A stretch of 64,000 nucleotides of DNA from Escherichia phage mobillu: sequence record MN850622.1; one strand, given 5' to 3'. A model generated the notes under the pieces. The model worked only from the letters and a program-made list of their open reading frames with translations, had not been told where the DNA came from and did no database searches. A program made the position numbers and the translations under genes. This document shows positions 10,801 to 33,075 of the stretch, one piece after another. Numbering within the stretch: position 1 is the first letter of the stretch; every line of letters starts with the position of its first letter.

Positions 10801-10939
10801 CCCCGTCTGCCGTTTTAGTCTCAGCGATTTCTACGAAATAGTAGAAATTAGCACCAACGTCATCCCAGCGTATTTGAACTTGGTTAGCGGACAACTTGGA
10901 TATTCTGAGACTTGTGACTGCTGGCGCTTTTACTGTCAT
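7841..10939 (-). CDS. 7: baseplate wedge initiator gp7
   Basis: 1032 aa, same length as T4 gp7; position between 6 and 8. Confidence 0.93.
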   Translation of the reverse strand: MTVKAPAVTSLRISKLSANQVQIRWDDVGANFYYFVEIAETKTADGEIIPPASYRWINLGYTPNSNWFESSLDPLTSYIIRVSTAAEGFERSDWVYTEIFESFQTNAYTFQHMIEMQLANTFIREKFTNNNMSYVDFNNDTIMAALMNESFQFSPAYADISSIKNFIIGENEYHEIQGSIQQVCHDINRVYLMESEGILYLFERYQPVVKVSNDKGQTWKSVKLFNDRVGYPVSRTVYYQTGYTTYVLGYDKLFYGRKSTDVRWSADDVRFSSQDITFAKIGDQLNLGFDVEIFGNYASLPANVSRIAEAIVCNDDYVYVAARDKVRFIKTSNAPIDSDPLSPTYSERLFEQETFNITGNPKAVCYKMDSVGGKIFALIIGEVVNLNDDPRTTPIVDSADKGVYVLDHDAGTFKRVFGNTEEERRRIEPGYTSMSTDGVELSISSSNFKFLESDIVDDPKTQVKYGLIGAVKYEYPREWLADKHYHMMSFISTEDSQWESFTPQPMEYYAEPFFSYSRKSGTRCWINNSDKAVVIYSDLLYTKVIENHPLSSSDREVHEYWKDGDCTIVMPNVDFTGFKKYASGMIFYKASGEIISYYDFSYRVRDNVSIIWKPTNIFLTASLQNQEKDTTWTPVEENGIADPDLRPLLTTMMPESYLLDNTNFEAFCEAYIQYLSDGYGTHYNNLLNLIKNQYPREEHAWEYLWSEIYKRNIYLNAEKRDLVSRFFESRSYDFYSTKGTEASYKFLFKVLYNEDVEIEIESSSGTEYDIIIESDSLTEDLVGQTIYTATGRCNVTYIERSYSKGKLQWTVTIHNLLGRLIQGQEVKAERLPGFEGEIVRGIKGKELSQNNIDYINRGRAYYVMKIKSKLPSSRWKSDVLRFVHPVGFGFIAITLLTMFINTGLTLKHVETIINKYKNYKWDSGLPTKYADRVAKLDPQGNVEFDPITGKAIYEIGPMAGQDYPLPEDYNAENNNSIFQGQLPSERRKLMSPLFDASGTTFSRFRDLVEQRLIDNVGNPRDPVNPPQVKLDE

Positions 10940-18855: not shown

Positions 18856-19541
<686 letters not shown>

Positions 19542-19555
19542 TTTTCACAAAACAG

Positions 19556-19595
19556 TTTACATAAGGATGATGGTGTGTTACTATCATCCTATCAA
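19556..19595 (+). promoter_or_regulatory. T4-type early promoter in stem-loop (PeSL-like) upstream of ipI
   Basis: GTTTACA -35 box, about 17-bp spacer, -10 TACTAT inside inverted repeat AGGATGAT/ATCATCCT. Confidence 0.6.
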
Positions 19596-19618
19596 ATAAA
19601 TAACCTCAAGGAAATAAA

Positions 19619-19906
19619 ATGAAAACCTATAAAGAATTTATATCACCTTTTGCTAACGTTTCTACTCTGACCGAAGCAACCCTTACTTCCGAAGTTATTA
19701 AAGCAAATAAAGGACGTGAGGGTAAACCAATGATTAGCCTGGTTGACGGCGAAGAAGTAAAAGGTACTGTTTACTTAGGGGATGGATGGTCTGCTAAGAA
19801 AGACGGCGCTACTATTGTTATCTCTCCGGCAGAAGAGACTGCATTGTTTAAAGCTAAGCATATTTCTGTAGCTCAGCTTAAAATTATTGCAAAAACTCTT
19901 CTGTAA
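19619..19906 (+). CDS. ipI: internal protein I (capsid-targeted, injected; anti-GmrSD in T4)
   Basis: 95 aa; N-terminal capsid targeting sequence MKTYKEFISPFANVSTLTE then ATLTSEVIKANKGREGKPMISLVDGEE... matching recalled T4 IPI; 19-aa propeptide ending LTE. Confidence 0.88.
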   Translation: MKTYKEFISPFANVSTLTEATLTSEVIKANKGREGKPMISLVDGEEVKGTVYLGDGWSAKKDGATIVISPAEETALFKAKHISVAQLKIIAKTLL

Positions 19907-19909
19907 GTA

Positions 19910-19948
19910 GTTTACATCTTGATAGGACTATGTTATAGTAGTCCTATC
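19910..19948 (+). promoter_or_regulatory. PeSL-like early promoter
   Basis: GTTTACA, 17-bp spacer, TATAGT inside perfect 10-bp inverted repeat GATAGGACTA/TAGTCCTATC. Confidence 0.65.
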
Positions 19949-19976
19949 AAAACAAATGAGTAAATGGAGAAATAAA

Positions 19977-20162
19977 ATGAAACGCGCTGAACTGATTCGT
20001 AATGTTGCTGTAGTAATTGCTTCAATGGCTTTTAGTTTTTCGATGTTTGTAGGATTCATTTGCGGACTACTGACAACAACTGAAAATTCTATCTCATTGG
20101 TAGTAGCATTTCTAATCGGTTTAATCGCTATCGTTATGGATAAAATTGCAAAAGGTGAGTAA
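19977..20162 (+). CDS. small hydrophobic (membrane) protein
   Basis: ATG preceded by GGAG SD; hydrophobic core; the upstream in-frame ATG at 19956 lacks an SD. Confidence 0.5.
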   Translation: MKRAELIRNVAVVIASMAFSFSMFVGFICGLLTTTENSISLVVAFLIGLIAIVMDKIAKGE

Positions 20163-20163
20163 A

Positions 20164-20526
20164 ATGAAATATCACGTATATGCGGATTTTGAAGCAAATC
20201 CTTCTAAAGACCCTGATTGTCGTTTGATACGCAAACCATTTGATTCAGCAGCTCAAGCATGGACTTGGATTAAATCTAAATCGCCTGGTTATATGTTCTT
20301 TGAAGTAGTCGATGACAATGGTACACTGCATCCAGAACCTACAGAAACTATTAATTTCCTTATGTTTGCTGGTTACGACTGTTATCCTCTTGGCGGTATT
20401 GACGACCTTGTTGCTACAGGAAAAACTGTTGAGGCTCTTCGCGAAATTTATAAAAACGCAGAAGAAAATTTTGACTGGTATCATATTGTTGATGCTCATA
20501 CCTTTGAAATGGTGGAACATTCATGA
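20164..20526 (+). CDS. hypothetical protein
   Basis: ORF with AGGTGAG SD before the internal ATG; tightly packed with neighbours. Confidence 0.55.
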   Translation: MKYHVYADFEANPSKDPDCRLIRKPFDSAAQAWTWIKSKSPGYMFFEVVDDNGTLHPEPTETINFLMFAGYDCYPLGGIDDLVATGKTVEALREIYKNAEENFDWYHIVDAHTFEMVEHS

Positions 20527-20813
20527 TTCTTTATGCTAAAGTATCGTCCATTGAGAATGGATACGAAAGCGATCAACGTGCAGCTAAAGCACTAGTCGAT
20601 GACTACGGTATTCTGACTAACTTTGAGGTTGAAAAGGTTTATATCGACCGTTCATCTTCGCAAGTTAAATTACTCTGTGAAGACGGTAAATTTAACACAG
20701 TTAACTTTGATTTCTTTATTGAAACAGAAAAAGGCCCTCTTGAATATGATATTTTCAAGAATCCTTTGAAATTACGTTGCATTGAATATAATTACATTAA
20801 TATGGTACGGTGA
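20523..20813 (+). CDS. hypothetical protein
   Basis: ORF with ATGA start/stop overlap. Confidence 0.55.
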   Translation: MILYAKVSSIENGYESDQRAAKALVDDYGILTNFEVEKVYIDRSSSQVKLLCEDGKFNTVNFDFFIETEKGPLEYDIFKNPLKLRCIEYNYINMVR

Positions 20814-20817
20814 GTAA

Positions 20818-21333
20818 ATGAATATTTGTTTAGGCAGTACAATTCCTAAGGGTTACGTAATTGATGTCACTACTTGGGAAAATGACGGCGACAACTATAA
20901 AACTAAAACGTTGTTTGGTGTAGAAGAGCATGAGCTCCAACAGTTTAAATATCTCTTGAAGAAATTTAAGAGCCGTCATTCTAGCACCAAAGCCGAACGT
21001 TATTGCGGTAATACACCATTCAGTGATTGCTCGCTTTTAATCTATGAATACCTGGTTGAAGGACTGTTCTCAGACCAACTCCATCCGGAATTTATTAAAA
21101 AGGTCTTTGGTGTCGAAGTAGACCTTGGTGATAAATCTGAAGAAGACGAAGCCCGTGTATTCGACCTGTTCTTTGTGAAAGGCGATGAGATATCTCAAGG
21201 ACTTATTGATATTCTTGGCTATGCTTCTGAATATTATGATTACGATTTCTTGCGTGTAGTTGAACGTGTCGAATTTGCTTATATTGAAAAAGAAATTGTT
21301 TTGCCAACCGTTAAAATGGTTGATTTGCTTTAA
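20818..21333 (+). CDS. hypothetical protein
   Basis: 171 aa ORF, acidic, phage-typical codon usage. Confidence 0.6.
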   Translation: MNICLGSTIPKGYVIDVTTWENDGDNYKTKTLFGVEEHELQQFKYLLKKFKSRHSSTKAERYCGNTPFSDCSLLIYEYLVEGLFSDQLHPEFIKKVFGVEVDLGDKSEEDEARVFDLFFVKGDEISQGLIDILGYASEYYDYDFLRVVERVEFAYIEKEIVLPTVKMVDLL

Positions 21334-21412
21334 GAATTATGTGTTATTATTAATTCATACCCTCTATTACCAAAGGTGCTCTAAAGTGCCTTTCATAATA
21401 GAAAGTTATTAA

Positions 21413-21487
21413 GGCCCTGTAGCTCAATGGGAGAGCTGTCAGCTCATAACTGATAGGTAGCTGGATCGAAACCAGCCAGGGCCACCA
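21413..21487 (+). tRNA. tRNA with CAU anticodon (Met or lysidine-type Ile; T4 synteny suggests Ile)
   Basis: Cloverleaf by hand: acceptor GGCCCTG/CAGGGCC, D arm GCTC-AATGGGA-GAGC, anticodon arm GTCAG-CTCATAA-CTGAT, T arm GCTGG-ATCGAAA-CCAGC, encoded CCA. Confidence 0.75.
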
Positions 21488-21490
21488 ATC

Positions 21491-21567
<77 letters not shown>

Positions 21568-21585
21568 ACTTCAAGTGAGGAAAAT

Positions 21586-21930
21586 ATGAAAGGCAATATT
21601 TATCTGGTAGTTCATGACTTAACGTTTTATTTTAACGAACGTGAAACAGTTATTTCCGATAGGTTAATTAATTCATTATATCAACATGCTGATTATGTTT
21701 ATTTTCAAAATGAATTCGGACATTGGAAGTTTCTTAAAAACCGTTCAGGGTTAACTAGTTTTGAATACTTTGACCGTAAAGACCTTTTAAACGAAATTCC
21801 ATTACAACATCGGTTCCAGAAACGCGAATCACTATACTATTGTCGTCATATACCAAATGCTGAATGTGTTAATGAAGCGATTAATCTATGGCGTCGGCGT
21901 CGAGAGCAAATTGATGATATGCCAAAATAA
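21586..21930 (+). CDS. hypothetical protein between tRNAs and stable-RNA candidate
   Basis: ATG MKGNIYLVVHDL... with GAGG SD; the track's upstream extension overlaps tRNA-Arg. Confidence 0.55.
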   Translation: MKGNIYLVVHDLTFYFNERETVISDRLINSLYQHADYVYFQNEFGHWKFLKNRSGLTSFEYFDRKDLLNEIPLQHRFQKRESLYYCRHIPNAECVNEAINLWRRRREQIDDMPK

Positions 21931-22039
21931 GAAGCCGGGTCGCTACCGGCAAGTCGTCGGACTGATGTTCCCTGAGTAAGGACTGGTCTTAATAAATCTT
22001 TACGATTTGTTAATATCCCCTTACATCACAGCAGAAACG

Positions 22040-22190
22040 GCGCACCGAATTATCGATTCGAGGAAATATCTTTGCCGTAAGCCGAGTAGCGTTTTTGACG
22101 GAACGTTCGGATATGGTCGAGATATGGCCTTTTAAAAATATTGAGTAGCGTCAACTGCTTAATAACCGGGTTCGAATCCCGGCGTTTCGT
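22040..22190 (+). ncRNA. candidate small stable RNA with tRNA-like 3' domain (possible counterpart of T4 species 1/2 RNAs)
   Basis: GC-rich non-coding stretch; canonical T arm CCGGG-TTCGAAT-CCCGG (22165-22181) followed by acceptor-like CGTTTCG able to pair with CGGAACG at 22098; a full cloverleaf could not be folded by hand. Confidence 0.35.
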
Positions 22191-22242
22191 ACAAACACTC
22201 GCCTTAGCAGGTGGAACCCCGACAAGGTTGCCGCAAGGCTTA

Positions 22243-22269
22243 GCCCCTTCCGAAAGGTCGGGGCTTTTT
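22243..22269 (+). terminator. intrinsic terminator
   Basis: AGCCCC-TTCCGAAAGG-TCGGGGCT hairpin followed by TTTTT. Confidence 0.7.
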
Positions 22270-22276
22270 GGCATAA

Positions 22277-22285
22277 TAATAAATA
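22277..22285 (+). promoter_or_regulatory. late-promoter-like box TAATAAATA
   Basis: One mismatch to TATAAATA; same 9-mer recurs before e and gene 49; followed by palindrome AAGTTAATTAACTT. Confidence 0.4.
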
Positions 22286-22314
22286 GATAAGTTAATTAAC
22301 TTAGGAAAAGCAAC

Positions 22315-22779
22315 ATGAAATCATACGCTGAATTTTTGACTGAACAATCTAGTTCAGATGTAAAAGCCGCTGCGATTGCAGCAATTCAAGCAGGTAAATA
22401 TTCTTACAAAGACGCCTCTGATGAAGAACGTTTCCGTTTTATTAGAGATTTTAAAGCCGAAGGTTTTACTAATGCTAATACTGTTAGCCGAGTTTTTAAA
22501 AGCCTAGCTGCATCAGGTGAATTGTTCCAGAAAGCTACAGGTAAAGCACCTGCGCCAAAAACAGACCCTAAAGCAGCTCAAGAAAAAAATATCGCCAAAG
22601 GAATTATTTCTAAGTATGAAGCAATTCTTAAAGAGCTTTTAGTAATCAAAACAGAAGGCCAGAAACTGGCACGAGCACATAGCTTCAAAGATAATCCTCA
22701 CGCTCATAGCCTTGAGTATGTTGAAGATATCCAAAAACTTATTAAAGACCGTATCTGGTCTGCTAAACAAATTAAATAA
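22315..22779 (+). CDS. internal-protein-like, capsid-targeting sequence at N-terminus
   Basis: 154 aa; N-terminus MKSYAEFLTE matches the IP capsid targeting sequence consensus (MKTYQEFI.E) with LTE cleavage motif. Confidence 0.65.
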   Translation: MKSYAEFLTEQSSSDVKAAAIAAIQAGKYSYKDASDEERFRFIRDFKAEGFTNANTVSRVFKSLAASGELFQKATGKAPAPKTDPKAAQEKNIAKGIISKYEAILKELLVIKTEGQKLARAHSFKDNPHAHSLEYVEDIQKLIKDRIWSAKQIK

Positions 22780-22785
22780 TAGAAT

Positions 22786-22812
22786 GCCCCTTCCTTATGG
22801 TTGGGGCCTTTT
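22786..22812 (+). terminator. intrinsic terminator
   Basis: GCCCC-TTCCTTATGGTT-GGGGC hairpin then CTTTTGG. Confidence 0.6.
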
Positions 22813-22845
22813 GGTATCTAGGGCATAAAAATATTTCATAAAGAT

Positions 22846-22892
22846 GTTTACTTCTTCTAAGGACATGATACTATAGACTTATCAACCATAGA
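22846..22892 (+). promoter_or_regulatory. PeSL-like early promoter
   Basis: GTTTAC, -10 TACTAT, partial inverted repeat reaching the SD. Confidence 0.55.
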
Positions 22893-22902
22893 GGAAAATG
22901 TT

Positions 22903-23406
22903 ATGAGTCTTTACACTGAACTGAATAAAAAATCTGAAGAATCTGCTGAAACTATTTTTAAAAACGTGCAAAAGCGTATTTTGGAAAAGATGTACGATGC
23001 AGCATCTAAAGGTGAAAAATCTTGCCGGTTTCCGATGAGGTGTTCTTCTGATTTATGCGCAAATACTATTGAATGGCTGGAAAGTGAAGGTCTTACGGTA
23101 GAGAAAAACCCGGCGACTTCTATTGACGGCGAATCATATATTAGTATTTCTTGGGATAAATCAAGGGTAGAAGAGAAAGATGGTGATTGGGTTGTAGATG
23201 TTAAAACTTCTGATGGTGGACGTTCTGTTGAAGTTTCGGCTGTAGTTAAAGGTACCCACGAACAAAGGACTTGGGGTTGGGGTGGTGAAGAAAAAGAAAT
23301 TGTTCTTAGTGTGATTGCCAGGTCAACTAGTAATAAAATTGCACAAAGCATCATTGACGCTGCAATTGCTGAAGCAGAAAAAATTTGCAAAATTAAAAAT
23401 AAATGA
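22903..23406 (+). CDS. hypothetical protein
   Basis: 167 aa charged protein after GAGGAAAA SD; fully antisense ORF 22911..23420 judged artefactual. Confidence 0.6.
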   Translation: MSLYTELNKKSEESAETIFKNVQKRILEKMYDAASKGEKSCRFPMRCSSDLCANTIEWLESEGLTVEKNPATSIDGESYISISWDKSRVEEKDGDWVVDVKTSDGGRSVEVSAVVKGTHEQRTWGWGGEEKEIVLSVIARSTSNKIAQSIIDAAIAEAEKICKIKNK

Positions 23407-23455
23407 TGTACAAACGCCAAGGATGGTGGTACTATAGACTTATCAACTACAGAGG
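23406..23455 (+). promoter_or_regulatory. PeSL-like early promoter
   Basis: TGTACA -35 variant, 17-bp spacer, TACTAT; downstream arm contains GAGGAG SD. Confidence 0.55.
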
Positions 23456-23464
23456 AGTAACAAA

Positions 23465-23629
23465 ATGACTACTTTAATTATTTGGTTCGATGAAAATGAA
23501 GAAACATACTGTGTGAATATTGATGAAAGTCCAATGCCTGAATTTGAATCCTCGGATAAAAACTCTGTTGTATCTTGGGCTGAAGGTTATAAAGCAGCTA
23601 AAGGTGACGTTGAAATAATTTACATCTAA
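23465..23629 (+). CDS. small hypothetical protein (54 aa)
   Basis: ATG 8 nt after GAGGAG; below the 60-aa track cutoff. Confidence 0.4.
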   Translation: MTTLIIWFDENEETYCVNIDESPMPEFESSDKNSVVSWAEGYKAAKGDVEIIYI

Positions 23630-23660
23630 GTAAGTTTATGTTATAGTAGTCCTATCAAAT
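23617..23660 (+). promoter_or_regulatory. PeSL-like early promoter
   Basis: TTTACA, 17-bp spacer, TATAGT, right arm TAGTCCTATC. Confidence 0.55.
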
Positions 23661-23675
23661 CAAGAGGAAAACAAA

Positions 23676-23903
23676 ATGGCTAAAGTTAGTATTGATGTCG
23701 TTGATTATGAATACACAGAAGAAGTTATTCGCAACCGCCACCCTGAAGTTCGTATCGATTCAGTCCAAGATTCCAAGTTCTGGACAACTGAGCTTAATCT
23801 GAGTGGTCCTTATGAAGCTGTTAAGAAGTTCATGGTTGAAGAATACTGCGAAGGCATGCACCCCGAAGACGCCAAGTTTTATGTCAATTTGATTAAAAAA
23901 TAA
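23676..23903 (+). CDS. hypothetical protein
   Basis: 75 aa ORF after AGAGGAAAA SD. Confidence 0.55.
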   Translation: MAKVSIDVVDYEYTEEVIRNRHPEVRIDSVQDSKFWTTELNLSGPYEAVKKFMVEEYCEGMHPEDAKFYVNLIKK

Positions 23904-23945
23904 TTTACAAACTCTTGAGAGCAGAGTATAATGCTCTCGTTGGAT
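23903..23945 (+). promoter_or_regulatory. PeSL-like early promoter (near-identical copy at 53513)
   Basis: TTTACA, 17 bp, TATAAT flanked by inverted repeat GAGAGC/GCTCTC. Confidence 0.6.
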
Positions 23946-23973
23946 AATAAACCACCAATTGAAAGGTAATAAT

Positions 23974-24567
23974 ATGAACACACTGAAGAAACTTGTTGAA
24001 TTCATCCGCACTAAACTGGGTACTGCTATGGCTAAAAATCTGACTGTCGAAGAACAGTATAACGCAGCTGCAGATAAGTTGATTACCCAAATCAAAGAAC
24101 TAAAAACGGCTTCTGTTAAATCTATTAATGAAGAAAAACGTATTCGCGAACTTGTTAATGAAAAGAACAAGCAAGCCGCTTCTAAGGAACGTGAAATTCG
24201 TAAGCTCCTGGCTGAAGGACAAGATGTTACCATGCATGCTAAGCTTGGTCTTCTGTATCGTCGAACTGCCGAACAACTTAATACAAAAGCTGACGGGTAT
24301 GCCGCTATGCGAATTGAAATTGCTCGTAAGGTGGTTGAACTTGATGATGCTCGTCAGAATCTGGCAATCAAACTCGAATACATTCGTGAAACTCGAGCAG
24401 CCAATGCCCTTGGTATCTCTACGGCTGATGATGTAATTGAAATCGCTGCACTGACTAAGGTTGATATCGAAGACACTCTGACTCGTGTTGAAACGTTCAA
24501 TGGCACTCCAGCCGGCGTCGAAACCACTTCTGCTGATGTACAAGAATATATTAACTCTTTGAAATAA
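23974..24567 (+). CDS. coiled-coil protein, possibly PspA/IM30-like
   Basis: Internal [19 protein letters not shown]... with AAAGGTAA SD; long heptad-like helical sequence; family call is weak. Confidence 0.55.
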
Positions 24568-24575
24568 AATAATAC

Positions 24576-24597
24576 GGAGGACTCCGGTCCTCCTTTT
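24576..24597 (+). terminator. intrinsic terminator
   Basis: GGAGGACT-CC-GGTCCTCC hairpin then TTTT. Confidence 0.7.
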
Positions 24598-24616
24598 GGA
24601 TAATAAAGGAGTTAAC

Positions 24617-25219
24617 ATGCGAAACCAAAATAATGATATTGACTCAATGTTCGAAGAGTTCCGAGATAAGGTAAATCCACCTACGTCTTTAGTTGATTCA
24701 TTACGATATGTTGCAACCGGACGTAAATGGTACTGGTCGTCTTCTTATGAGACCACCGAGAAAACGGCTAGCCATAGCAGAAAATCTTTATTAGCCCCAG
24801 GTATTATGATTCATGATATCGGAGCTATTGCTAAACTAGTTGCAGACCATGATATTAGATTCACTGATTTCGTTGCTCCTACGTGGTCTGTTTGTTGTTT
24901 AAACACTGAATGGGAATATATCAGCGAACGCTCTGAAGATTATTATGGCTTTAGAGATAAGCTTCTGAGGTCTAATATGTTTTATATCGATACAGAAGTT
25001 CTAGTCGATAATAAAAAATATTACTTTACGTTAATCATCGATTCTGAAACTATGTATGAAGGCAAGCCTTTGCTTAAAAGAGTTGATGCTTTAAGTGCTA
25101 TTGATGCGCTTTATGAAACTATGGTTGTTAGTCCTAATTTCACTAACAATTTAATCCTTGAGCAATTTATTATGGAATGTAGAGAATATGTCAAAGCCAA
25201 CCCTATACATGCCAAGTAA
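24617..25219 (+). CDS. hypothetical protein
   Basis: ATG MRNQNNDIDSMFEEF... after AAGGAG SD. Confidence 0.6.
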   Translation: MRNQNNDIDSMFEEFRDKVNPPTSLVDSLRYVATGRKWYWSSSYETTEKTASHSRKSLLAPGIMIHDIGAIAKLVADHDIRFTDFVAPTWSVCCLNTEWEYISERSEDYYGFRDKLLRSNMFYIDTEVLVDNKKYYFTLIIDSETMYEGKPLLKRVDALSAIDALYETMVVSPNFTNNLILEQFIMECREYVKANPIHAK

Positions 25220-25583
25220 GCCCTGGGCGTATGAATACAAGCGTAAATTAATCCCAAATGAAGTACTATTTGGCCCTATTTTAGCTTTAGCATTTTTAAT
25301 CTTTATGATTATAGGAGCTGTTTTAGATTCTAGTGAAGTTATATCGTCTGATGCAGCATTTTCATTAATGTTCGTCGCACCACTTATTGTACCGTTTTTA
25401 TTAATGCCTATTAATTGGGTAGGATATTGGCACCAAGGCCGTCATCACAGAGCCCGATTAAGAGAATGGAAAGTTCAGTGCGCAAAAGCCCAAGCTCAGT
25501 ATGATGAAGCTGTTAAAAAGTATGAATATGAAGAAGCTATGGAATTCGTTAAGGAAATAAGATGCAAAAGCCTCAACTCTTAA
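25188..25583 (+). CDS. small membrane protein, C-terminal ...EFVKEIR family
   Basis: Hydrophobic segments; start uncertain (overlaps upstream gene). Confidence 0.45.
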   Translation: MSKPTLYMPSKPWAYEYKRKLIPNEVLFGPILALAFLIFMIIGAVLDSSEVISSDAAFSLMFVAPLIVPFLLMPINWVGYWHQGRHHRARLREWKVQCAKAQAQYDEAVKKYEYEEAMEFVKEIRCKSLNS

Positions 25584-25921
25584 CCGTATGGCCTTCTCTT
25601 GGTGAGAACATTCTAATTTTTATTATGAGTATTGGCATGGGATTTGCCTTTGGATTAGTTGGATTTCTTATTGACGGCGTTGTGTTAGGATTTATAGGGA
25701 ACACTGGTGGATTCACAGACCAATGGCAGGACTTACGGTATACCCAAGCCTTTGCATCCATCGCATCATTTTGTACTGTAGTCTATTTTTACTACGATTT
25801 TATAAACCATAACAAGAAAAATAAAAAGATTTACGCTTCTCAAATGATTAGTTATAATGAACTTCTAGCTAAACGTGAAAATGAAACAATCGAAAACTTT
25901 ATTAAGGAATGTAGAAAATGA
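25562..25921 (+). CDS. small membrane protein, C-terminal ENFIKECR family
   Basis: ATG after AGGAAATAAG; two predicted TM stretches; conserved C-terminus shared with 28339 and 29540 ORFs. Confidence 0.55.
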   Translation: MQKPQLLTVWPSLGENILIFIMSIGMGFAFGLVGFLIDGVVLGFIGNTGGFTDQWQDLRYTQAFASIASFCTVVYFYYDFINHNKKNKKIYASQMISYNELLAKRENETIENFIKECRK

Positions 25922-26223
25922 GTAAGATTATTGAAATTAAAGTACCAGAGTTTAATGATGCCAAATCCGCTTCAGATGCAATTTATAAACTTCTGAATCA
26001 AGCTGAACGTATCGAAGAAGAAGCAACAAAGATCGCAGACCAATATGCCGTATCATTTTCTGTAGGTGATTATGGTAGCGGTCGTACTTATTATCCTAAG
26101 GGTGAAATCGTATCCCAGTGGATGAAAGATGAAATTGAAAATAATGGTGGCGATGTTAAGCGTGAAGGTAATGGTTACGTTATTACTGAAGGTGCTTGGG
26201 TTTCGTCTTCTGCGTTGTGCTAA
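25918..26223 (+). CDS. small protein, tandem paralogue 1 (C-terminal GWVSSS..C)
   Basis: 101 aa; C-terminus EGAWVSSSALC; ATGA overlap with upstream gene. Confidence 0.6.
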   Translation: MSKIIEIKVPEFNDAKSASDAIYKLLNQAERIEEEATKIADQYAVSFSVGDYGSGRTYYPKGEIVSQWMKDEIENNGGDVKREGNGYVITEGAWVSSSALC

Positions 26224-26232
26224 GGAATCGTT

Positions 26233-26505
26233 ATGTCTAAAGAACAAACCGAACTGGCTGAAGCTGTAGCAAAAATCTATGCAGCTATTGAGGCTGCCAA
26301 AGAAATTGCTGATAAACAAAACACAACATTCAACTTGTACCCAGCTTATGGTATGGGTGGAACCTATCATTCACCCGGACATCTTAAAGCCGATCTTGAA
26401 CGTTGTACAAAAAACGGCTATGCTGAATGGGCTGACGTTTACCAATACGACTACAACCTGAGCCTCGAAACCGGTGGTTGGGTCGCATCTTCTCACACTT
26501 GCTAA
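26233..26505 (+). CDS. small protein, tandem paralogue 2
   Basis: 90 aa; C-terminus GGWVASSHTC; junction TGCTAAGGAA shared with paralogue 1. Confidence 0.6.
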   Translation: MSKEQTELAEAVAKIYAAIEAAKEIADKQNTTFNLYPAYGMGGTYHSPGHLKADLERCTKNGYAEWADVYQYDYNLSLETGGWVASSHTC

Positions 26506-26514
26506 GGAAACAAT

Positions 26515-26712
26515 ATGTCTCGTGAATTAGATTGTGCTGTACGTACGGCAGTAGCTGCTCTGGAAAACCTGTTCCAAATTGCAACAGAAGAACGCGAAGA
26601 AGTTACATTATGGATTGAAGATAACGCAGGTCTGAATCTCCAGGACGCGATCTCATTATCCCACAATAGTATCACTGTTCAAGGCTGGGTATCATCTAGT
26701 TATTCTTGCTAA
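26515..26712 (+). CDS. small protein, tandem paralogue 3
   Basis: 65 aa; C-terminus QGWVSSSYSC. Confidence 0.55.
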   Translation: MSRELDCAVRTAVAALENLFQIATEEREEVTLWIEDNAGLNLQDAISLSHNSITVQGWVSSSYSC

Positions 26713-26715
26713 AAC

Positions 26716-26756
26716 AGTTTACAACAAGATAGGGCTATGTTATAGTAGTCCTATCA
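26716..26756 (+). promoter_or_regulatory. PeSL-like early promoter
   Basis: GTTTACA, TATAGT, inverted repeat GATAGGGCTA/TAGTCCTATC. Confidence 0.6.
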
Positions 26757-26774
26757 AAACAAATGGAGTCCACA

Positions 26775-27014
26775 ATGATTTATTACGAAAGTATCGGAAC
26801 CAAAGTGGTTGGTAAAACCATTACTCGTGAAAAGTTTGCAAAGATATTCGATATGCGTTATAAAAAATCTGAACACAAAGGCATCCGATTCGAAGATGCG
26901 CACTGTACAATTTGCCCTTATAATGAAGACATAAACGGTACAATCGTTCCATTGGTAGAGGCTTCACATGATGACCTCTGGGATGAATATAATATCGCAT
27001 GTCGTGAAATTTAA
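26775..27014 (+). CDS. hypothetical protein (Cys/His-containing)
   Basis: ATG MIYYESIG... 7 nt after GGAG. Confidence 0.5.
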   Translation: MIYYESIGTKVVGKTITREKFAKIFDMRYKKSEHKGIRFEDAHCTICPYNEDINGTIVPLVEASHDDLWDEYNIACREI

Positions 27015-27042
27015 GTTAATGAATTAATCCGAGGAAAATATT

Positions 27043-27999
27043 ATGTTGTTAGTTATTGGTTCTCGTGCACTTCACTATCACGGTCTTATTGATTCTAGCG
27101 CTATTAAAAATAGTGATTGGGACTTTATTGCGGACCAAGGTTCTTGGAATGCATTCAAAAATCAAATGATGGGTGTATATGTTCACCAAGATAACCCTGA
27201 TGTCCAAGTTTTCAAATGCTTCCATAATGGACGCGAAACTCATTTTGAAGCATACATCGTTCCGGCTATCACTAACGTTCGCGAACTAGTCGGTGAACTC
27301 ACTCCTGAAGATTTCACGTCTTCTTATGACCTTTTAAAATACGCCAAGAAAAATTTGGCTAAAGACCGTTTGAACGGGTTTTACTGGGCAACTCCTGAGA
27401 TATGTCTTGCAATTAAGATGTCTCATCGTTTCAAGAAAAATAATCCATTCTTTTTAAAGACTATGAACCATATTCAGTATCTTCGTGGTAAAGGTGTTAC
27501 ACTGAACGATGAACTTACTGAAATTATGCTGAAACGCCAGAAAGAAACCTTGAATTATGCTCACCCAGTTCTTGACACTTCTAAAAGTGCGTTCTTTAAA
27601 GATGACATCTATACGTATGACCATGATACTATCCATGAAGCCATTGCACTAACTGACCAGCCTGCTTATAAGTTTTATATGAAAGAAGGCTCAGAAGTTA
27701 TGACATCACGCGAGAAGTTCGAATCATTACCAGAAATGGTTAAATTAGCCGGTGTATATGAAGAAGCTTGTGTATTAGCTCTTGAACGTTCACAGATTCC
27801 TAACGACTTTAAAATCCATCCACGTGATAGTTTTATGATGGCCCTTGAAAAGGTCTGTACATCAATCACATCAGGATGGTTCCGTGAGTTCGCTTGGGAA
27901 AATTATAGCAAAGTAGTAAGTATGTACCAAAGCTTAGGACACGACGATTACGTCAAGCGTTTCAAACAAAACTTTCATATGGTAAAACCTTTCAAATAA
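27043..27999 (+). CDS. hypothetical protein with nucleotidyltransferase-like N-terminal motif
   Basis: 318 aa; N-terminus VIGSRALHYHGLIDSSAIKNSDWDF resembles the G-S...D-x-D Pol-beta NTase signature (spacing longer than typical). Confidence 0.6.
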   Translation: MLLVIGSRALHYHGLIDSSAIKNSDWDFIADQGSWNAFKNQMMGVYVHQDNPDVQVFKCFHNGRETHFEAYIVPAITNVRELVGELTPEDFTSSYDLLKYAKKNLAKDRLNGFYWATPEICLAIKMSHRFKKNNPFFLKTMNHIQYLRGKGVTLNDELTEIMLKRQKETLNYAHPVLDTSKSAFFKDDIYTYDHDTIHEAIALTDQPAYKFYMKEGSEVMTSREKFESLPEMVKLAGVYEEACVLALERSQIPNDFKIHPRDSFMMALEKVCTSITSGWFREFAWENYSKVVSMYQSLGHDDYVKRFKQNFHMVKPFK

Positions 28000-28011
28000 T
28001 TTCACAAAACA

Positions 28012-28050
28012 GTTTACAAGGTCTGTAGTTGTTGATACTATAGACCTATC
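28012..28050 (+). promoter_or_regulatory. PeSL-like early promoter
   Basis: GTTTACA, 17 bp, TACTAT, inverted repeat around -10. Confidence 0.6.
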
Positions 28051-28079
28051 AAAACAAATGAGTGAATGGAGATATAAAA

Positions 28080-28280
28080 ATGACTACTTTGAATAAACGT
28101 TTCGGTAAAGCTAAACCTGGTTGTGCAGCAGAACGTCGTTATGTTTTCGCTCAGTTAGAAGATGTAGAGTATCAGATTAATCAAGTTCACATTACTGGTA
28201 TCGAGCCTATGTGTGGCCTTGAAGCTCTTCGTGAAGTTCGTGATGGGTATCGTCGTGACATCGAAGAAATGTCAAAATAA
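28080..28280 (+). CDS. hypothetical protein
   Basis: ATG MTTLNKRFGKAKPG... after TGGAGA SD. Confidence 0.5.
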   Translation: MTTLNKRFGKAKPGCAAERRYVFAQLEDVEYQINQVHITGIEPMCGLEALREVRDGYRRDIEEMSK

Positions 28281-28320
28281 GTGTACAAACTGATAGGACT
28301 ATGTTATAGTAGTCCTATTA
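28281..28320 (+). promoter_or_regulatory. PeSL-like early promoter
   Basis: TGTACA, TATAGT, inverted repeat GATAGGACTA/TAGTCCTAT. Confidence 0.6.
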
Positions 28321-28338
28321 AAACATGAGGAGAATATT

Positions 28339-28644
28339 ATGAAATTAGGCGAAACCAACCGAATTGGTCTTTTAACAATATTTGTATCACTTTTTTACGC
28401 AGCTCTTTCTGTTGCAGTATTACAAAAGGCTTACAGTATGGATGGTGTTCCTGGTTTTGTATTCTTATCGCCGTTTTTGCTATTCGTTGGAGCATTGTTA
28501 TTATATGCCACGACTAGTTTCGACCATAACGTCTGGGTCAATTATAAATGTAAATTGTCTGAAGAAGAACACGCAGAAGCTCGTAAAAAAGCTATTGAAT
28601 CTACCAATCTAGAAAATTTCATTAAAGAATGTCGAGGAAAATAA
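28339..28644 (+). CDS. small membrane protein, C-terminal ENFIKECR family
   Basis: 101 aa, two hydrophobic helices, C-terminus NLENFIKECRGK. Confidence 0.6.
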   Translation: MKLGETNRIGLLTIFVSLFYAALSVAVLQKAYSMDGVPGFVFLSPFLLFVGALLLYATTSFDHNVWVNYKCKLSEEEHAEARKKAIESTNLENFIKECRGK

Positions 28645-28645
28645 T

Positions 28646-29332
28646 ATGAATAGTTCTAAAGTGTTTAATAGTCAAGCTCGTGCAGTTGGTAGTTTTGCAC
28701 ATAACGTACAAAATGACCGAATCAAAAATGAACCAATGTTCTTTAATTGTGATTTGGGTTTTGCTTGGGATAATGGTGGCTCAATCACTCGTAGCTTTAT
28801 TGCCAATCTCCCAATTGATTGGACTAATCAACATGTTGTATTTGATTCTCGGGTTCATATGCTGATGCCTGGGTGGTATCCTGCTATCCCTGGATACCAC
28901 CATGACGATGTTCCTCGCCCTGATATTCCAGTTGGTCAACACTTTATTACTGCAGGACAACCTGACTATGACAACCCTCGTTACCATTCTGAACATATTC
29001 TTGGTCTTGTTAACGCTGACGTGTGTCCTACTCATTTTGCAACAGGAACTGCAGAGTTCAGTCAGATTCCTGATGGCGAACTTATCTATCGCCAGTGGCA
29101 CAAAGAAGTCCTCGAAAAAATTGAAAAAGGTGAACTAGAGAAATGGGAAGCTCCAGACCGTACTCTTCTTCAGTTTGATTGGCAAACATGGCACACTGGT
29201 TCTCGTGCAATTAGTAATGGATGGCGTTGGTTCGGACGTGTATCTCGTAATACAGACCGAGTTAAAAAGATTACCAATGAAATTCGTGTCAACGCTCAAG
29301 TTTATCTGGAATTCCCTATGGAAGGCTGGTAA
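28646..29332 (+). CDS. hypothetical protein; candidate 2OG-Fe(II) oxygenase fold
   Basis: 228 aa; GYHHDDVP (HxD-like) and WHTGSRAISNGWRWFGRVS (His then R-x-S about 12-15 residues later); motif-level only. Confidence 0.6.
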   Translation: MNSSKVFNSQARAVGSFAHNVQNDRIKNEPMFFNCDLGFAWDNGGSITRSFIANLPIDWTNQHVVFDSRVHMLMPGWYPAIPGYHHDDVPRPDIPVGQHFITAGQPDYDNPRYHSEHILGLVNADVCPTHFATGTAEFSQIPDGELIYRQWHKEVLEKIEKGELEKWEAPDRTLLQFDWQTWHTGSRAISNGWRWFGRVSRNTDRVKKITNEIRVNAQVYLEFPMEGW

Positions 29333-29613
29333 TGATTAACAAAACATATTGGTCTAATATAGACGACGGCAATAAAGGTATTTCATACTATTCAATAGAT
29401 TGGACAGGATGTCCATCCTACTTAGTTAAACGTATTTGCCAAGAATTTAAAATCGACCAGCCAGCAGGTATTATCGTGAACAGATACATTAACGGTTATC
29501 AACCTATCGATGAAGTAATACGAACAACTCAAGCTGATCTTGAAAAGTTTTTCAATAAGTGCCAATGGATCGCAGGATGGATTATATTTGTACCATCGGT
29601 ATGGTTTTTTTAG
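29332..29613 (+). CDS. hypothetical protein with hydrophobic C-terminus
   Basis: 93 aa; ends at a T7 homopolymer overlapping the next reading frame. Confidence 0.55.
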   Translation: MINKTYWSNIDDGNKGISYYSIDWTGCPSYLVKRICQEFKIDQPAGIIVNRYINGYQPIDEVIRTTQADLEKFFNKCQWIAGWIIFVPSVWFF

Positions 29614-29824
29614 TACTAAGGTGAGTTCTTTCGGTTTTGTTGATATTATTGCTATCTTATTAGCATCTACTATCGTAAGTATTATTGGTGGCATCATTGG
29701 CGGCGGCACTGTCGCTATCATTATTAATCTTATTAAAAGTAGTTTACAAGAACATAAAGACAAGATAAAAGCCAAGAATAATGAAGTTGAACGTTTTATT
29801 ACCGAATGCAGGAATTTGAGATGA
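29540..29824 (+). CDS. ENFIKECR-family C-terminal module; start undefined (possible frameshift fusion with 29332 ORF)
   Basis: Frame has TM segment and C-terminus NNEVERFITECRNLR but no ATG near the previous gene's stop; GTG at 29621 possible. Confidence 0.4.
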   Translation: MKSFSISANGSQDGLYLYHRYGFFSTKVSSFGFVDIIAILLASTIVSIIGGIIGGGTVAIIINLIKSSLQEHKDKIKAKNNEVERFITECRNLR

Positions 29825-30057
29825 GTATAGCAATTTACATTAAATCAGAATCATGTGATAGTTATCTGTACACATACGATAAAGATGTGTCAGAAGAAAA
29901 AATCAAAGACGACCTTAATATGGACCTTGATATGTTCTGTCCTATTGCAGATTACAAACTTGCGGTCTCTAATAGTGAAAGTCCATCTAAAGAAACGCGC
30001 ATTGAAGAATTTATGTCCGAATTAATGGCCAAATCATGGGACCGAGTTGATGAGTAA
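29821..30057 (+). CDS. hypothetical acidic protein
   Basis: ATG MSIAIYIKSES... with ATGA overlap. Confidence 0.5.
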   Translation: MSIAIYIKSESCDSYLYTYDKDVSEEKIKDDLNMDLDMFCPIADYKLAVSNSESPSKETRIEEFMSELMAKSWDRVDE

Positions 30058-30505
30058 GAAAAATAAAGTGAAAGAACTATCAGCCGGTATTATTTTCCTT
30101 ACCGAAGATAAAGAATTATTCATGGGGCGTGTAACTGGTTCTCGTCCTAAAGGTGCATTAACTCATCGGTGGGATATTCCTAAAGGACGTGTCGAACCTG
30201 GCGAATCTCCTATTGAAGCCGCTATTCGTGAATGCGAAGAAGAAACTGGGTTTACACAATATGACCCTGCCTTCCTGAAAGACCTAGGTGAACATCATTA
30301 CTCAGACAATAAGAATATTCATCTGTTCCTATATACCATCCCTGTAGAGCACGAGCAATTCAGAAACAGTGTTTGTAATTCATATCATACATTCCCAGAC
30401 GGACGACAGATTCCTGAATTTGATGCATTCGCTTTAATTAAACCTTCTCAATGGGAATATGTAATGGGCAAATCATTATATAAGGTGCTCACTACACTCC
30501 TATAA
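30047..30505 (+). CDS. nudE: Nudix hydrolase
   Basis: 152 aa; Nudix box GRVEPGESPIEAAIRECEEETGF; position next to e as in T4. Confidence 0.9.
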   Translation: MMSKKNKVKELSAGIIFLTEDKELFMGRVTGSRPKGALTHRWDIPKGRVEPGESPIEAAIRECEEETGFTQYDPAFLKDLGEHHYSDNKNIHLFLYTIPVEHEQFRNSVCNSYHTFPDGRQIPEFDAFALIKPSQWEYVMGKSLYKVLTTLL

Positions 30506-30506
30506 G

Positions 30507-30537
30507 TAATAAATACCTCCTATAAACGTGGGAGGTA
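30507..30537 (+). promoter_or_regulatory. late-promoter-like TAATAAATA plus SD-sequestering hairpin upstream of e
   Basis: TACCTCC-(TATAAACGTG loop)-GGAGGTA stem-loop encloses the GGAGG SD of the lysozyme gene, as in the known T4 e regulation. Confidence 0.65.
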
Positions 30538-30539
30538 TT

Positions 30540-31028
30540 ATGAATATATTTGAAATGCTTCGTAATGACGAAGGTCTTAGACTGACTTTATACAAAGACA
30601 CTGAAGGCTTTTGGACGATTGGCATAGGCCATTTAGTAACAAAGAACCCGTCTTTAGCCGTAGCTAAAGCTGAACTTGACAGAATGATCGGTCGTAAATG
30701 CAACGGTACAATTACCCTTGATGAGGCTGAAAAGCTATTTAATGAAGACGTTGATAAAGCCGTCCGCGGAATCTTGGGTAATGCTAAACTTAAACCGGTA
30801 TATGATTCTTTAGATGCAGTTCGTCGGTGTGCATTGGTCAATATGGTCTTCCAAATGGGTGTAGCAGGCGTCGCTGGTTTTACTAATTCTCTTCGTATGC
30901 TTCAACAGAAACGTTGGGATGAAGCGGCAGTAAATCTAGCCCAATCTAAATGGTATCGTCAGACACCTAATCGCGCGAAACGCGTAATCTCAACATTTAA
31001 AACAGGAACTTGGAAAGCGTATATATGA
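30540..31028 (+). CDS. e: endolysin (T4 lysozyme)
   Basis: [39 protein letters not shown]... near-identical to recalled T4 lysozyme. Confidence 0.96.
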
Positions 31029-31306
31029 AAACATATAGTGAATTTTTATCAGAATCTATTCTTAACGAAGCTACTGACACATTTGCAACTAAGCTAGGTG
31101 CAGCTTTGGTTGAAGCCGAAAGTCTATTAGCACGTATTTCTGAACTTGCTAGTAAGATAGATACTCGCAAATTTGAACGTACCAGCGATATCGCTAAGCT
31201 TGAAGCCTTGTTACGTATGTGCGATAAACCGGAAGAAATCGCTAAGAACGGCTCGCTAATGAAACAACGTCTTGAAAAATATATTTCAGGCGCTTCAGAA
31301 AAATAG
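31025..31306 (+). CDS. internal-protein-like, capsid-targeting sequence at N-terminus
   Basis: 93 aa; N-terminus [10 protein letters not shown]; ATGA overlap with e stop. Confidence 0.65.
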
Positions 31307-31307
31307 T

Positions 31308-31362
31308 GTTTACTTCCTCCAAGGACTTTGATACTATACATTCATCAACTACTTGGAGGAAA
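31308..31362 (+). promoter_or_regulatory. PeSL-like early promoter upstream of denV
   Basis: GTTTAC, TACTAT, long inverted repeat ACTTCCTCCAAGG/CCTTGGAGGAA whose right arm is the SD. Confidence 0.65.
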
Positions 31363-31364
31363 TT

Positions 31365-31778
31365 ATGACCCGTATCAATTTAACACTTGTTTCTGAACTG
31401 GCCGTCCAACATCTTATGGCTGAGTATCGTGAATTACCACGCGTATTTGGTGCAGTCCGTAAACATGTTCAAAATGGTAAACGTGTAAAGGATTTTAAAA
31501 TCTCTCCAACATTTATCTTAGGCACAGGTCACGTAACATTCTTTTACGACAAACTCGAATTTTTACGTTTACGTCAAATCGAGCTAATCACTGAATGCTT
31601 GAAACGTGGTTTCAAAATCAAGGACACGACTGTCCAGGATATTTCCGACATCCCTGCCGAATTTCGTAATAATTATGTCCCGTCCGAAGCGTCCATTGCG
31701 ATAAGTCAAGCACGCTTAGATGAAAAAATTGCTCAACGGCCGTCTTGGTACAAATATTATGGCAAATCAATTTACTAA
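31365..31778 (+). CDS. denV: endonuclease V (pyrimidine-dimer DNA glycosylase)
   Basis: [35 protein letters not shown]... near-identical to recalled T4 DenV. Confidence 0.96.
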
Positions 31779-31793
31779 CTAATGGACATAAAA

Positions 31794-32054
31794 ATGAAAA
31801 CGTATCAAGAATTTATCACAGAAGCAGTCGTTAAAGGCCCTAAATTTAAAGTTAAAGCATTCGCAGGTGATGCTGAAGACTTTGGCTCATTAAAACGTAA
31901 TGGATATTCTTTCTTAGGTGGTGACGGTAAAGAAATCAATACCTATGCAAAGCGCCGCGAAATCGCATACATCGTAGCGGGACCTAAAGTGGATGCTGAT
32001 GATATTGAATACGATTTTGATAACTTTGGAATTGTTTCTGGTGGTAAAGCTTAA
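31794..32054 (+). CDS. internal-protein-like, capsid-targeting sequence at N-terminus
   Basis: 86 aa; N-terminus MKTYQEFITEA (IP consensus). Confidence 0.65.
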   Translation: MKTYQEFITEAVVKGPKFKVKAFAGDAEDFGSLKRNGYSFLGGDGKEINTYAKRREIAYIVAGPKVDADDIEYDFDNFGIVSGGKA

Positions 32055-32164
32055 ATAATTCCTGTCTAATAAAGGGGAACGCAACCTCTCCTCATGAACG
32101 TCGAGTCCTCTGAGTGATGTACCTTTTCCAACCTGTAATAAGGTCGAGCGCAATGCGGTAATGG

Positions 32165-32194
32165 GTTTACATAGCGAGTCGAAGGACCTAACAT
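32165..32194 (+). promoter_or_regulatory. early-promoter-like GTTTACA / TAACAT
   Basis: GTTTACA with 17-bp spacer to TAACAT, about 35 nt upstream of next ATG. Confidence 0.4.
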
Positions 32195-32230
32195 GTGCCA
32201 CGGAATGGCCCAAACCTTAAGAGAAATAAT

Positions 32231-32770
32231 ATGAGAACATTTTTAACTGGACCTTATCTATCCCTGATGAATGCTTTTACACACCATTCTGATGCTAGAG
32301 TAGAAGAAATTTGTAAGAACGGTTATGTCCCACCGTTTGAAGACGTACTCAAGCAGTACTGTACACTTCGTTTAGACGGTGGCCGACAATCAGGTAAATC
32401 AATTGCTGTGACTAACTTTGCTGCTAATTGGCTGTATGATGGTGGAACGGTTATTGTTCTTTCTAATACTTCAGCTTATGCTAAAATTTCTGCTGGCAAC
32501 ATTGAAAAAGAATTTTCTCGTTATTCTAGCGACGATATTCGATTCCGTTTATTTACTGATTCTGTTCGTAGTTTTATTGGCAATGAAGGTTCTAAATTCC
32601 GTGGATTAACGCTTTCTCGTATTCTGTATATAATTGACGAGCCTATTAAAGCTCCTGATATGGATAAGATTTACAATGTACATATTAAAACAGTCCAACA
32701 CTGTTGCAAAAACAAATATTGCAACGGCGGTATTGCTCGTCCTCAATTTTTTGTGATTGGAATGCAATGA
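32231..32770 (+). CDS. P-loop NTPase-like protein
   Basis: Walker A-like GGRQSGKS and Walker B-like LYIIDE. Confidence 0.6.
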   Translation: MRTFLTGPYLSLMNAFTHHSDARVEEICKNGYVPPFEDVLKQYCTLRLDGGRQSGKSIAVTNFAANWLYDGGTVIVLSNTSAYAKISAGNIEKEFSRYSSDDIRFRLFTDSVRSFIGNEGSKFRGLTLSRILYIIDEPIKAPDMDKIYNVHIKTVQHCCKNKYCNGGIARPQFFVIGMQ

Positions 32771-33075
32771 TGACCACTATTGAAGTTTTTGAATATTGTT
32801 ATAATAGCCCGGTATGCAATAAAAGGGCTCTTGTAGAAAATTATGAGATTTACCATTTTAAACCTAAACGATATCGTTTGACTAAAGGTCCGTTCGCAGG
32901 TCAGCAGGTTCTTTGTACTGCTCCTAATGCACGGTTGATGACTAGTATTCCACATTTCAAAATGGAATTTATTGATGGGCCATTTAAGGGATTAATCACT
33001 CAAAGTTTAATGGCGTTTAATTCCAACCCATTTTTGATTAAAGAAAAAACTTGGATAAATTTATTTTCTAATTGA
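32767..33075 (+). CDS. hypothetical protein
   Basis: 102 aa, ATG overlapping previous stop. Confidence 0.55.
   Translation: MMTTIEVFEYCYNSPVCNKRALVENYEIYHFKPKRYRLTKGPFAGQQVLCTAPNARLMTSIPHFKMEFIDGPFKGLITQSLMAFNSNPFLIKEKTWINLFSN

Follow-up and report, generated by a model that had tools for sequence, protein, structure and literature searches.

The 64,000-nucleotide stretch of the Escherichia phage mobillu genome (record MN850622.1) analysed here, referred to below as the window, carries four open reading frames (ORFs) that begin with the capsid targeting sequence (CTS) of the T4 internal proteins (IPs). The window represents a Mosigvirus, an RB69-like T-even phage, and we consider it probable (about 0.6) that the four genes encode T4-type internal proteins that are packaged in the head, cut by the protease gp21 and injected into the host; the mature form of the first of them (IPI*) would block GmrSD nucleases, and the other three would most likely be narrow-specificity inhibitors of first-response defences. 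This kind of system is textbook knowledge, and three of the four members, IPI, a homologue of Ip5 and a protein of the RB69ORF125c type, were already known; ORF2, located next to rnaC, is the sole member that had not been recognised. Three points are new here: the rnaC-adjacent cassette is a probable additional internal protein gene at a third locus, this cassette seems to be gained and lost through the terminator repeats that flank it, and the canonical ipII/ipIII slot is empty in this phage.

A shared leader in four open reading frames

The ORF search covered positions 19000-33000, and the leader motif was searched in all six frames of the whole window. Exactly four ORFs, all on the plus strand, were found to open with MK[ST]YxEF and to carry an (L/I)-x-E protease site (Table 1), against a chance expectation of 0.01 per window that was obtained analytically and agreed with 200 shuffles. 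A looser pattern, M[KR].[YFW].[EQD][FYLW], identified no further ORFs in the window. The scan thus confirmed the preliminary description, made from the letters alone, which had reported four ORFs with the T4 leader at these positions and a cleavage motif within their first 10-19 residues.

All four ORFs have one aromatic residue at position 4 and another at position 7, and the protease site is found at residues 8-10 in ORF2 (LTE), ORF3 (LSE) and ORF4 (ITE). ORF1 is an exception in the same way as T4 IPI, with its processing site at residues 17-19 (L17-T18-E19). Mutants of T4 IPIII have shown that the aromatic residues 4 and 7 are involved in targeting, and L/I at position 8 and E at position 10 in processing, while the first ten residues of this protein suffice to load foreign proteins into T4 heads or the prohead core (PMC9026906). 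The same leader is found on T4 IPI, IPII and IPIII, and on the Ip5, Ip6 and Ip7 proteins of T2, T6, RB68 and Shf125875. Among the three ORFs that have Thr3 the codon for this residue varies, and the longest nucleotide run in common within the first 30 nucleotides (nt) does not exceed 10 nt; the leader is therefore conserved as a peptide and does not stem from a recent DNA duplication. Gene conversion was ruled out on the same grounds, i.e. the synonymous codon differences and the short shared runs. We regard the four N-termini as genuine capsid targeting sequences with protease sites.

Table 1. Positions of the four ORFs with a capsid targeting sequence and of the associated signals in the window (aa, amino acids; pI, isoelectric point).
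Feature	Position	Strand	Description
ORF1 upstream signals	19556..19602	+	T4 early-type promoter TTTACA-17-TACTAT (19556-19584) and one-mismatch late box AATAAATA (19595-19602); consensus matches only
ORF1 (ipI), predicted internal protein I	19619..19906	+	95 aa; N-terminus MKTYKEFISPFANVSTLTE; propeptide residues 1-19 (nt 19619-19675) ending in LTE; mature IPI* residues 20-95
Terminator hairpin, copy 1	22243..22274	+	32 nt, just past rnaC; direct-repeat family, 81% identical to copy 2; terminator-like scan match
Late-promoter-like box	22278..22285	+	AATAAATA; 37 nt ahead of the ORF2 ATG
ORF2, unannotated candidate internal protein	22315..22779	+	154 aa; PHROG 2280; N-terminus MKSYAEFLTE; CTS residues 1-10 (nt 22315-22344)
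Terminator hairpin, copy 2	22786..22817	+	directly after the ORF2 stop codon
ORF3, predicted Ip5-family internal protein (= RB69ORF127c)	31025..31306	+	93 aa; CTS residues 1-10; second site LNE at 13-15
ORF4, predicted RB69ORF125c-type internal protein	31794..32054	+	86 aa; N-terminus MKTYQEFITE; CTS residues 1-10 (ITE); mature part 76 aa, pI 6.5; rare allele
Empty canonical ipII/ipIII slot	32057..32191	+	~135 nt of filler that includes an early-type promoter; relatives hold one or two more ip cassettes there

Family assignment of the mature proteins

ORF1 matched the Pfam family IPI_T4 (PF11634) with an E-value of 1.4e-50 (169.6 bits, compared to a cut-off of 25), falls in PHROG 4363 and is 88% identical to T4 IPI. 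Over their entire length, its residues 20-95 can be aligned with the IPI* structure (PDB 2JUB), with 72 of 76 positions identical and four substitutions. Judged from these matches ORF1 is the orthologue of IPI, as had been proposed in the preliminary description. It resembles T4 IPI in its locus after 57B and in its 19-residue propeptide ending in (I/L)-T-E, and differs from it in the four substitutions of the mature part and in the DNA of the phage, in which cytosine is arabinosylated rather than glucosylated. T4 IPI, in its mature form IPI*, inhibits GmrSD, a type IV restriction enzyme of E. coli CT596. For the IPI of RB69, which is reported to prevent GmrSD restriction, Thomas et al. likewise counted four substitutions (PMC6024577).

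The mature domains of the other three ORFs had been described as unassignable. This holds for ORF2, which belongs to a family annotated as 'hypothetical' (PHROG 2280), but not for ORF3 (Ip5/RB69ORF127c) and ORF4 (RB69ORF125c type, PHROG 2667). ORF3 matched PHROG 3499 with an E-value of 2e-46, and its full-length alignment with RB68 Ip5 showed 51% identity (84 aa, E=1e-26). A protein identical to ORF3 is labelled 'internal head protein' in UniRef and RefSeq, and a note in the T6 GenBank record pairs 'Ip5, RB69ORF127c'. On sequence grounds we assign ORF3 to the named Ip5 family, the naming of which reportedly follows the nomenclature of Repoila et al. 1994. ORF3 has in common with the Ip5 proteins of RB68, T6, T2, RB15 and RB70 its PHROG, its CTS and a second (L/I)-x-E motif at residues 13-15. 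However, in Tequatrovirus Ip5 is located at the ipI locus after 57B, where it replaces ipI, whereas ORF3 is present in addition to ipI, in the interval from e to denV. The start codon of ORF3 and the stop codon of e, the lysozyme gene and a late gene, overlap (ATGA). ORF3 is nearly invariant among Mosigvirus phages, and is 98.9% identical in the Tequatrovirus phage Lutter. A comparison of positions 31025-31778 of the window with positions 2200-2954 of Lutter revealed that ORF3 and denV are 97-99% identical at the protein level, whereas the adjacent nudE and e are only 63% and 87% identical, respectively, which points to a recent exchange of the Ip5-like/denV block between the genera Mosigvirus and Tequatrovirus.

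ORF4 matched PHROG 2667, annotated as 'internal head protein', with an E-value of 9e-22, and proteins of its type carry this same name in RefSeq in some genomes, e.g. that of Shigella phage JK45. By this match ORF4 is of the RB69ORF125c type. The Ip7 proteins of RB15, T2 and Shf125875 share PHROG 2667 with ORF4; the pairwise similarity to Shf125875 Ip7 is weak (36% over 53 aa) and mostly confined to the leader, and the two differ in position, ORF4 being located after denV and Ip7 in the ipI locus. The structure model of ORF4 was unusable (predicted local distance difference test, pLDDT, of 47). The longest possible reading frame of ORF4 begins 12 nt upstream, at 31782 (MDIKMKTY...), and 31794 is the likely start, since homologues and the public annotation begin at MK(T/M)Y. 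The annotation of this start is inconsistent among phages: the upstream ATG (31782-31793, adding MDIK) is used in NicPhage, giving a protein of 90 aa, and in other phages the common allele is annotated from an internal MYQEF.

Homologues of ORF4 are present in 215 phage records, of which three are at least 99% identical to it and most show 80-90% identity. Compared to the common allele, ORF4 shows a synonymous divergence (dS) of ~0.7 and a ratio of nonsynonymous to synonymous divergence (dN/dS) of ~0.1, whereas dS in the neighbouring genes is 0.01-0.15. ORF4 is an old allele that was acquired by recombination and kept functional under purifying selection, and it is not fast-evolving; positive selection was rejected on these same values. 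Truncated or frameshifted versions of the ORF4 family were observed in several phages, including Lutter (gp125/126), which fits a dispensable gene that is being lost in some lineages.

ORF2, ORF3 and ORF4, for which the preliminary description had proposed a comparison with T4 IPII and IPIII, are not close orthologues of either. BLASTP matched the leader only, with no similarity past the first 10-19 residues, and the PHROGs of the three ORFs differ from those of IPII (PHROG 7857) and IPIII (PHROG 5341). Two candidate signs of homology were rejected: the comparison of the ORF2 family with IPII by hhalign reached a probability of 30% and was limited to residues 1-41, and once the leaders were removed just a 9-residue chance match was left (AHSFKDNP/AHSFHDLP). 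In Pfam, NCBIfam and PDB sequence searches nothing significant was found for ORF2-4. What T4 IPII and IPIII have in common with ORF2-4 is the CTS, the small size, the dispensability and the cassette-like arrangement of genes in the e-denV-vs.8 region, together with, in the case of ORF2, a similarly basic mature part. On the other hand, the slot that holds IPII and IPIII in relatives is empty in the window, and the mature parts show no detectable similarity. T4 IPII inhibits the BrxU-type GmrSD of ECOR21, and IPIII inhibits the GmrS1/GmrSD2 system of ECOR17.

The rnaC-adjacent cassette and the empty ipII/ipIII slot

The mature part of ORF2 consists of 144 aa (16.0 kDa) and has a pI of 9.6, compared to 9.0-9.65 in the T4 IPs. 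In the AlphaFold model (pLDDT 75) an N-terminal helical domain (residues 13-75) is followed by a disordered Lys/Pro/Ala linker and a long C-terminal helical hairpin (residues 85-151). ORF2 homologues were found in 511 phage records; PHROG 2280 is labelled 'unknown function', and all sampled annotations, as well as the named members of three protein clusters, read 'hypothetical' or 'uncharacterized'. A profile search with the ORF2 family among 1.84 billion representative proteins identified only 10 matches, comprising T4-like phage relatives, fragments or apparent chimeras, and one weak match to a repeat protein.

The leader is retained across this family. The CTS is kept in the Tequatrovirus homologue (76% identical to ORF2), and a CTS-like N-terminus is also found in full-length homologues with 32-48% identity, both in profile matches (MLKFNEFLAE, MLEYSEFLKE and MISFNEF...ITE) and in gp113 of the Jiaodavirus phage Nispero, a Klebsiella phage (MKFKEFLAE). 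The location of the gene, directly after the tRNA/rnaC region, is shared by Mosigvirus, Tequatrovirus and Jiaodavirus. Truncated or frameshifted members of the ORF2 family were also encountered in several phages (five listed), as would fit a dispensable gene undergoing loss in some lineages.

ORF2 forms a cassette with the order terminator, late-promoter box, gene, terminator, and in the RB68 and Nispero homologues a perfect T4 late promoter (TATAAATA) is located 44-48 nt upstream of the ATG. In the alignment of the corresponding loci (T4 10780-10908, RB68 8791-9500), T4 has one copy of the hairpin, which is joined straight to the sequence found after copy 2 in RB68 and in the window. T4 therefore represents the cassette-less allele, with the junction within the repeat, and recombination between the flanking hairpins appears to be the way in which the ORF2 cassette is gained or lost. 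The cassette is absent from T4; in T2 and T6 no coding sequence has been annotated in the gap, which also leaves too little room for one, and RB69 apparently lacks the cassette as well, judged from annotation notes. The absence from T2, T4 and T6 plausibly explains why ORF2 has been omitted from the classical literature and from the 'two loci' view of ip genes.

A more far-reaching and only tentative proposal is that ORF2 represents a third, unrecognised internal-protein locus of T-even phages, consisting of a late-transcribed cassette bracketed by terminators in ~500 Tequatrovirus, Mosigvirus and Jiaodavirus genomes, the 16-kDa product of which would be injected and could neutralise a first-response defence outside the GmrSD targets of Ip1-3. 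A defence other than these GmrSD variants is suggested as target because ORF2 is conserved across genera that differ in their DNA sugar modification.

The canonical ipII/ipIII slot, empty in the window, holds different genes in close relatives: IpII in Shf125875, IPIII and IPII in AV115, and a CTS protein of PHROG 3966 together with IPIII in ChristianSchoenbein. NicPhage is identical to the window at the empty slot and has the same layout. The PHROG 3966 protein of ChristianSchoenbein (bas46_0217, locus 14215-14529) has been annotated as a 'hypothetical protein' of 104 aa and its PHROG as 'unknown function', although it begins with MKTYKEFIAE; it is an unannotated CTS protein in the ipII/ipIII slot. 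A region of ~70 nt that is nearly identical between different phages precedes the IpII, IPIII and PHROG 3966 cassettes (gtttacgcttaagtattaatatggtataat...aaggaaacaaaa ATGAAAAC; comparison loci L001 13707, L006 3295 and L002 14215), and a conserved promoter combined with the leader might serve to anchor recombination when ip cassettes are swapped. The ip slots vary between near-identical genomes, and such differences, together with the old recombined ORF4 allele maintained under purifying selection, suggest the signature of an arms race.

Proposed function, alternative explanations and genomic context

According to the mechanism proposed here, the N-terminal CTS would bind the scaffolding core during prohead assembly, and gp21 would then cut after the Glu of (L/I)-x-E, i.e. 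after E19 in IPI and after E10 in the other three proteins. The mature proteins (8-16 kDa) would remain in the head with the DNA and be ejected into the cell along with it. In T4 the leader is removed by gp21 and the internal proteins are ejected with the DNA (PMC9026906, PMC3012670). Genes 21 and 22 belong to the core genes of T4-related phages (PMC9026906); based on T4 synteny, gene 21 (prohead protease) and gene 22 (scaffold) should be located beyond the 64-kb window. As injected proteins are ejected together with the DNA, they can act before any phage gene is expressed, and IPIII has been shown to be active in the cytoplasm without its CTS (PMC9391042). For each of the proteins taken separately, we regard packaging as quite likely.

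Once in the cell, IPI* would block a GmrSD-type (CT596-type) type IV nuclease that attacks DNA with sugar-modified cytosine. ORF2, ORF3 and ORF4 would most likely be narrow-specificity binders that inhibit first-response defences of the host, their most probable targets being other modification-dependent (GmrSD/BrxU-like) nuclease variants, which in this case would attack Mosigvirus DNA with its arabinosylated cytosine. An anti-defence role is held with less assurance than packaging, the balance being slightly in its favour. It is established that T-even phages possess a polymorphic set of injected anti-restriction proteins that share only the CTS (PMC3012670; Silas 2025, PMC12373910), and Ip1, Ip2 and Ip3 of T4 have been shown to inhibit a different GmrSD type IV system each, these systems being highly diverged (Silas 2025, PMC12373910). 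Mosigvirus DNA carries arabosylated 5-hydroxycytosine, both mono- and di-arabinosylated, and is still cleaved by enzymes of the GmrSD family (PMC13390438, PMC13326640, PMC6024577). GmrSD/BrxU enzymes cut this ara-modified DNA, and the GmrSD of UTI89 restricts RB69 despite the IPI of this phage (PMC6024577, PMC13390438).

Several observations speak against these being packaged anti-defence proteins. In published tests of ip4-10, including the Ip5 prototype, against a panel of GmrSD systems, no reproducible inhibition or target was found (PMC12373910), and no proteomic study of virions that covers ORF2, ORF3, ORF4 or any homologue came to light in the searchable literature. In contrast to the basic T4 IPs, the mature parts of ORF3 and ORF4 have a near-neutral pI of 6.3-6.5, and inside ORF3 there are two more (L/I)-x-E motifs at which cleavage could occur. 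In the window, one-mismatch late boxes precede ORF1 and ORF2, but the exact late promoter TATAAATA is found ahead of none of the four genes. For ORF2, fold searches were uninformative and returned generic helical hairpins only; moreover, this gene shows good conservation and synteny and is not hypervariable, so that a housekeeping role fits as well as an arms race.

Such a role is the core of one alternative, in which ORF2-4, or at least ORF2, would be packaged and serve the virion itself, through neutralisation of DNA charge, condensation or ejection of the DNA, or head assembly as reported for T4 IPIII, and would inhibit no defence. We consider this rather unlikely: the basic mature part of ORF2 with its Lys/Pro/Ala-rich linker and the conserved position of the gene in three genera would fit it, as would the reports that lysines of the T4 IPs contact DNA phosphates and that head assembly is slowed in IPIII mutants (PMC3012670, PMC9026906), but the cassette is dispensable, given that T2, T4, T6 and, by annotation notes, RB69 do without it, ORF3 and ORF4 are not basic, and all three T4 IPs, formerly thought to be structural, proved to be specific restriction inhibitors. 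Alternatively, the proteins might be injected effectors with a target outside immunity, involved in the early takeover of host transcription, nucleoid or metabolism. With the co-packaged ADP-ribosyltransferase Alt, T4 offers an example of a take-over enzyme that travels in the head (PMC9026906), and the lack of a GmrSD target for Ip4-10 would agree with this explanation. Nevertheless it appears improbable, since the Pfam, NCBIfam and PDB searches revealed no enzymatic or known domain in ORF2-4, their size (76-144 aa) suits stoichiometric binders, and presence/absence polymorphism among near-identical phages is typical of host-range genes.

It seems very improbable that one or more of the proteins, most plausibly ORF2 or ORF4, is never packaged, the CTS-like N-terminus being a functionless relic of cassette shuffling. 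ORF2 homologues with as little as 32-48% identity still carry the CTS, the remaining sequence having diverged; the leader is constant as a peptide and varies in its synonymous codons; purifying selection acts on ORF4 (dN/dS ~0.1); and the ten N-terminal residues of IPIII are by themselves sufficient for loading foreign proteins (PMC9026906). These points outweigh the location of ORF4 behind the early gene denV without a convincing late promoter, the truncated or frameshifted state of several database homologues of ORF4 and ORF2, and the lack of direct virion evidence for packaging in the literature.

Injected internal proteins represent the earliest-acting counter-defence of T-even phages. The Mosigvirus set comprising IPI, the Ip5 homologue, the ORF125c-type protein and the widespread unannotated CTS cassette supplies defined candidates with which the host range of therapeutic T4-like phages could be engineered, and the candidates ORF1-4 could be used to discover new defence systems through their targets. 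The gain in knowledge is incremental: internal head protein is a label that two of the three 'unknowns' already bore, and the principle itself is textbook.

The 14-kb region that contains the four genes is 95-98% identical to many Mosigvirus genomes, with vB_EcoM_MM02 as the closest match. The gene order is 57A-57B-ipI-tRNA-rnaD-rnaC-...-nudE-e-ORF3-denV-ORF4-vs.8, which is collinear with that of the annotated Mosigvirus relatives Shf125875 and ChristianSchoenbein and also, in reverse orientation, with that of T4. Two genes for small stable RNAs were identified in this region: an rnaD homologue at 21927-22046 (87% identical to T4) and an rnaC homologue at 22053-22191 (98.6% identical to T4). 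Upstream of these are located tRNA-Met(CAU) at 21413-21487 and tRNA-Arg(UCU) at 21491-21567, the only two tRNAs here in this phage, compared to eight in T4.

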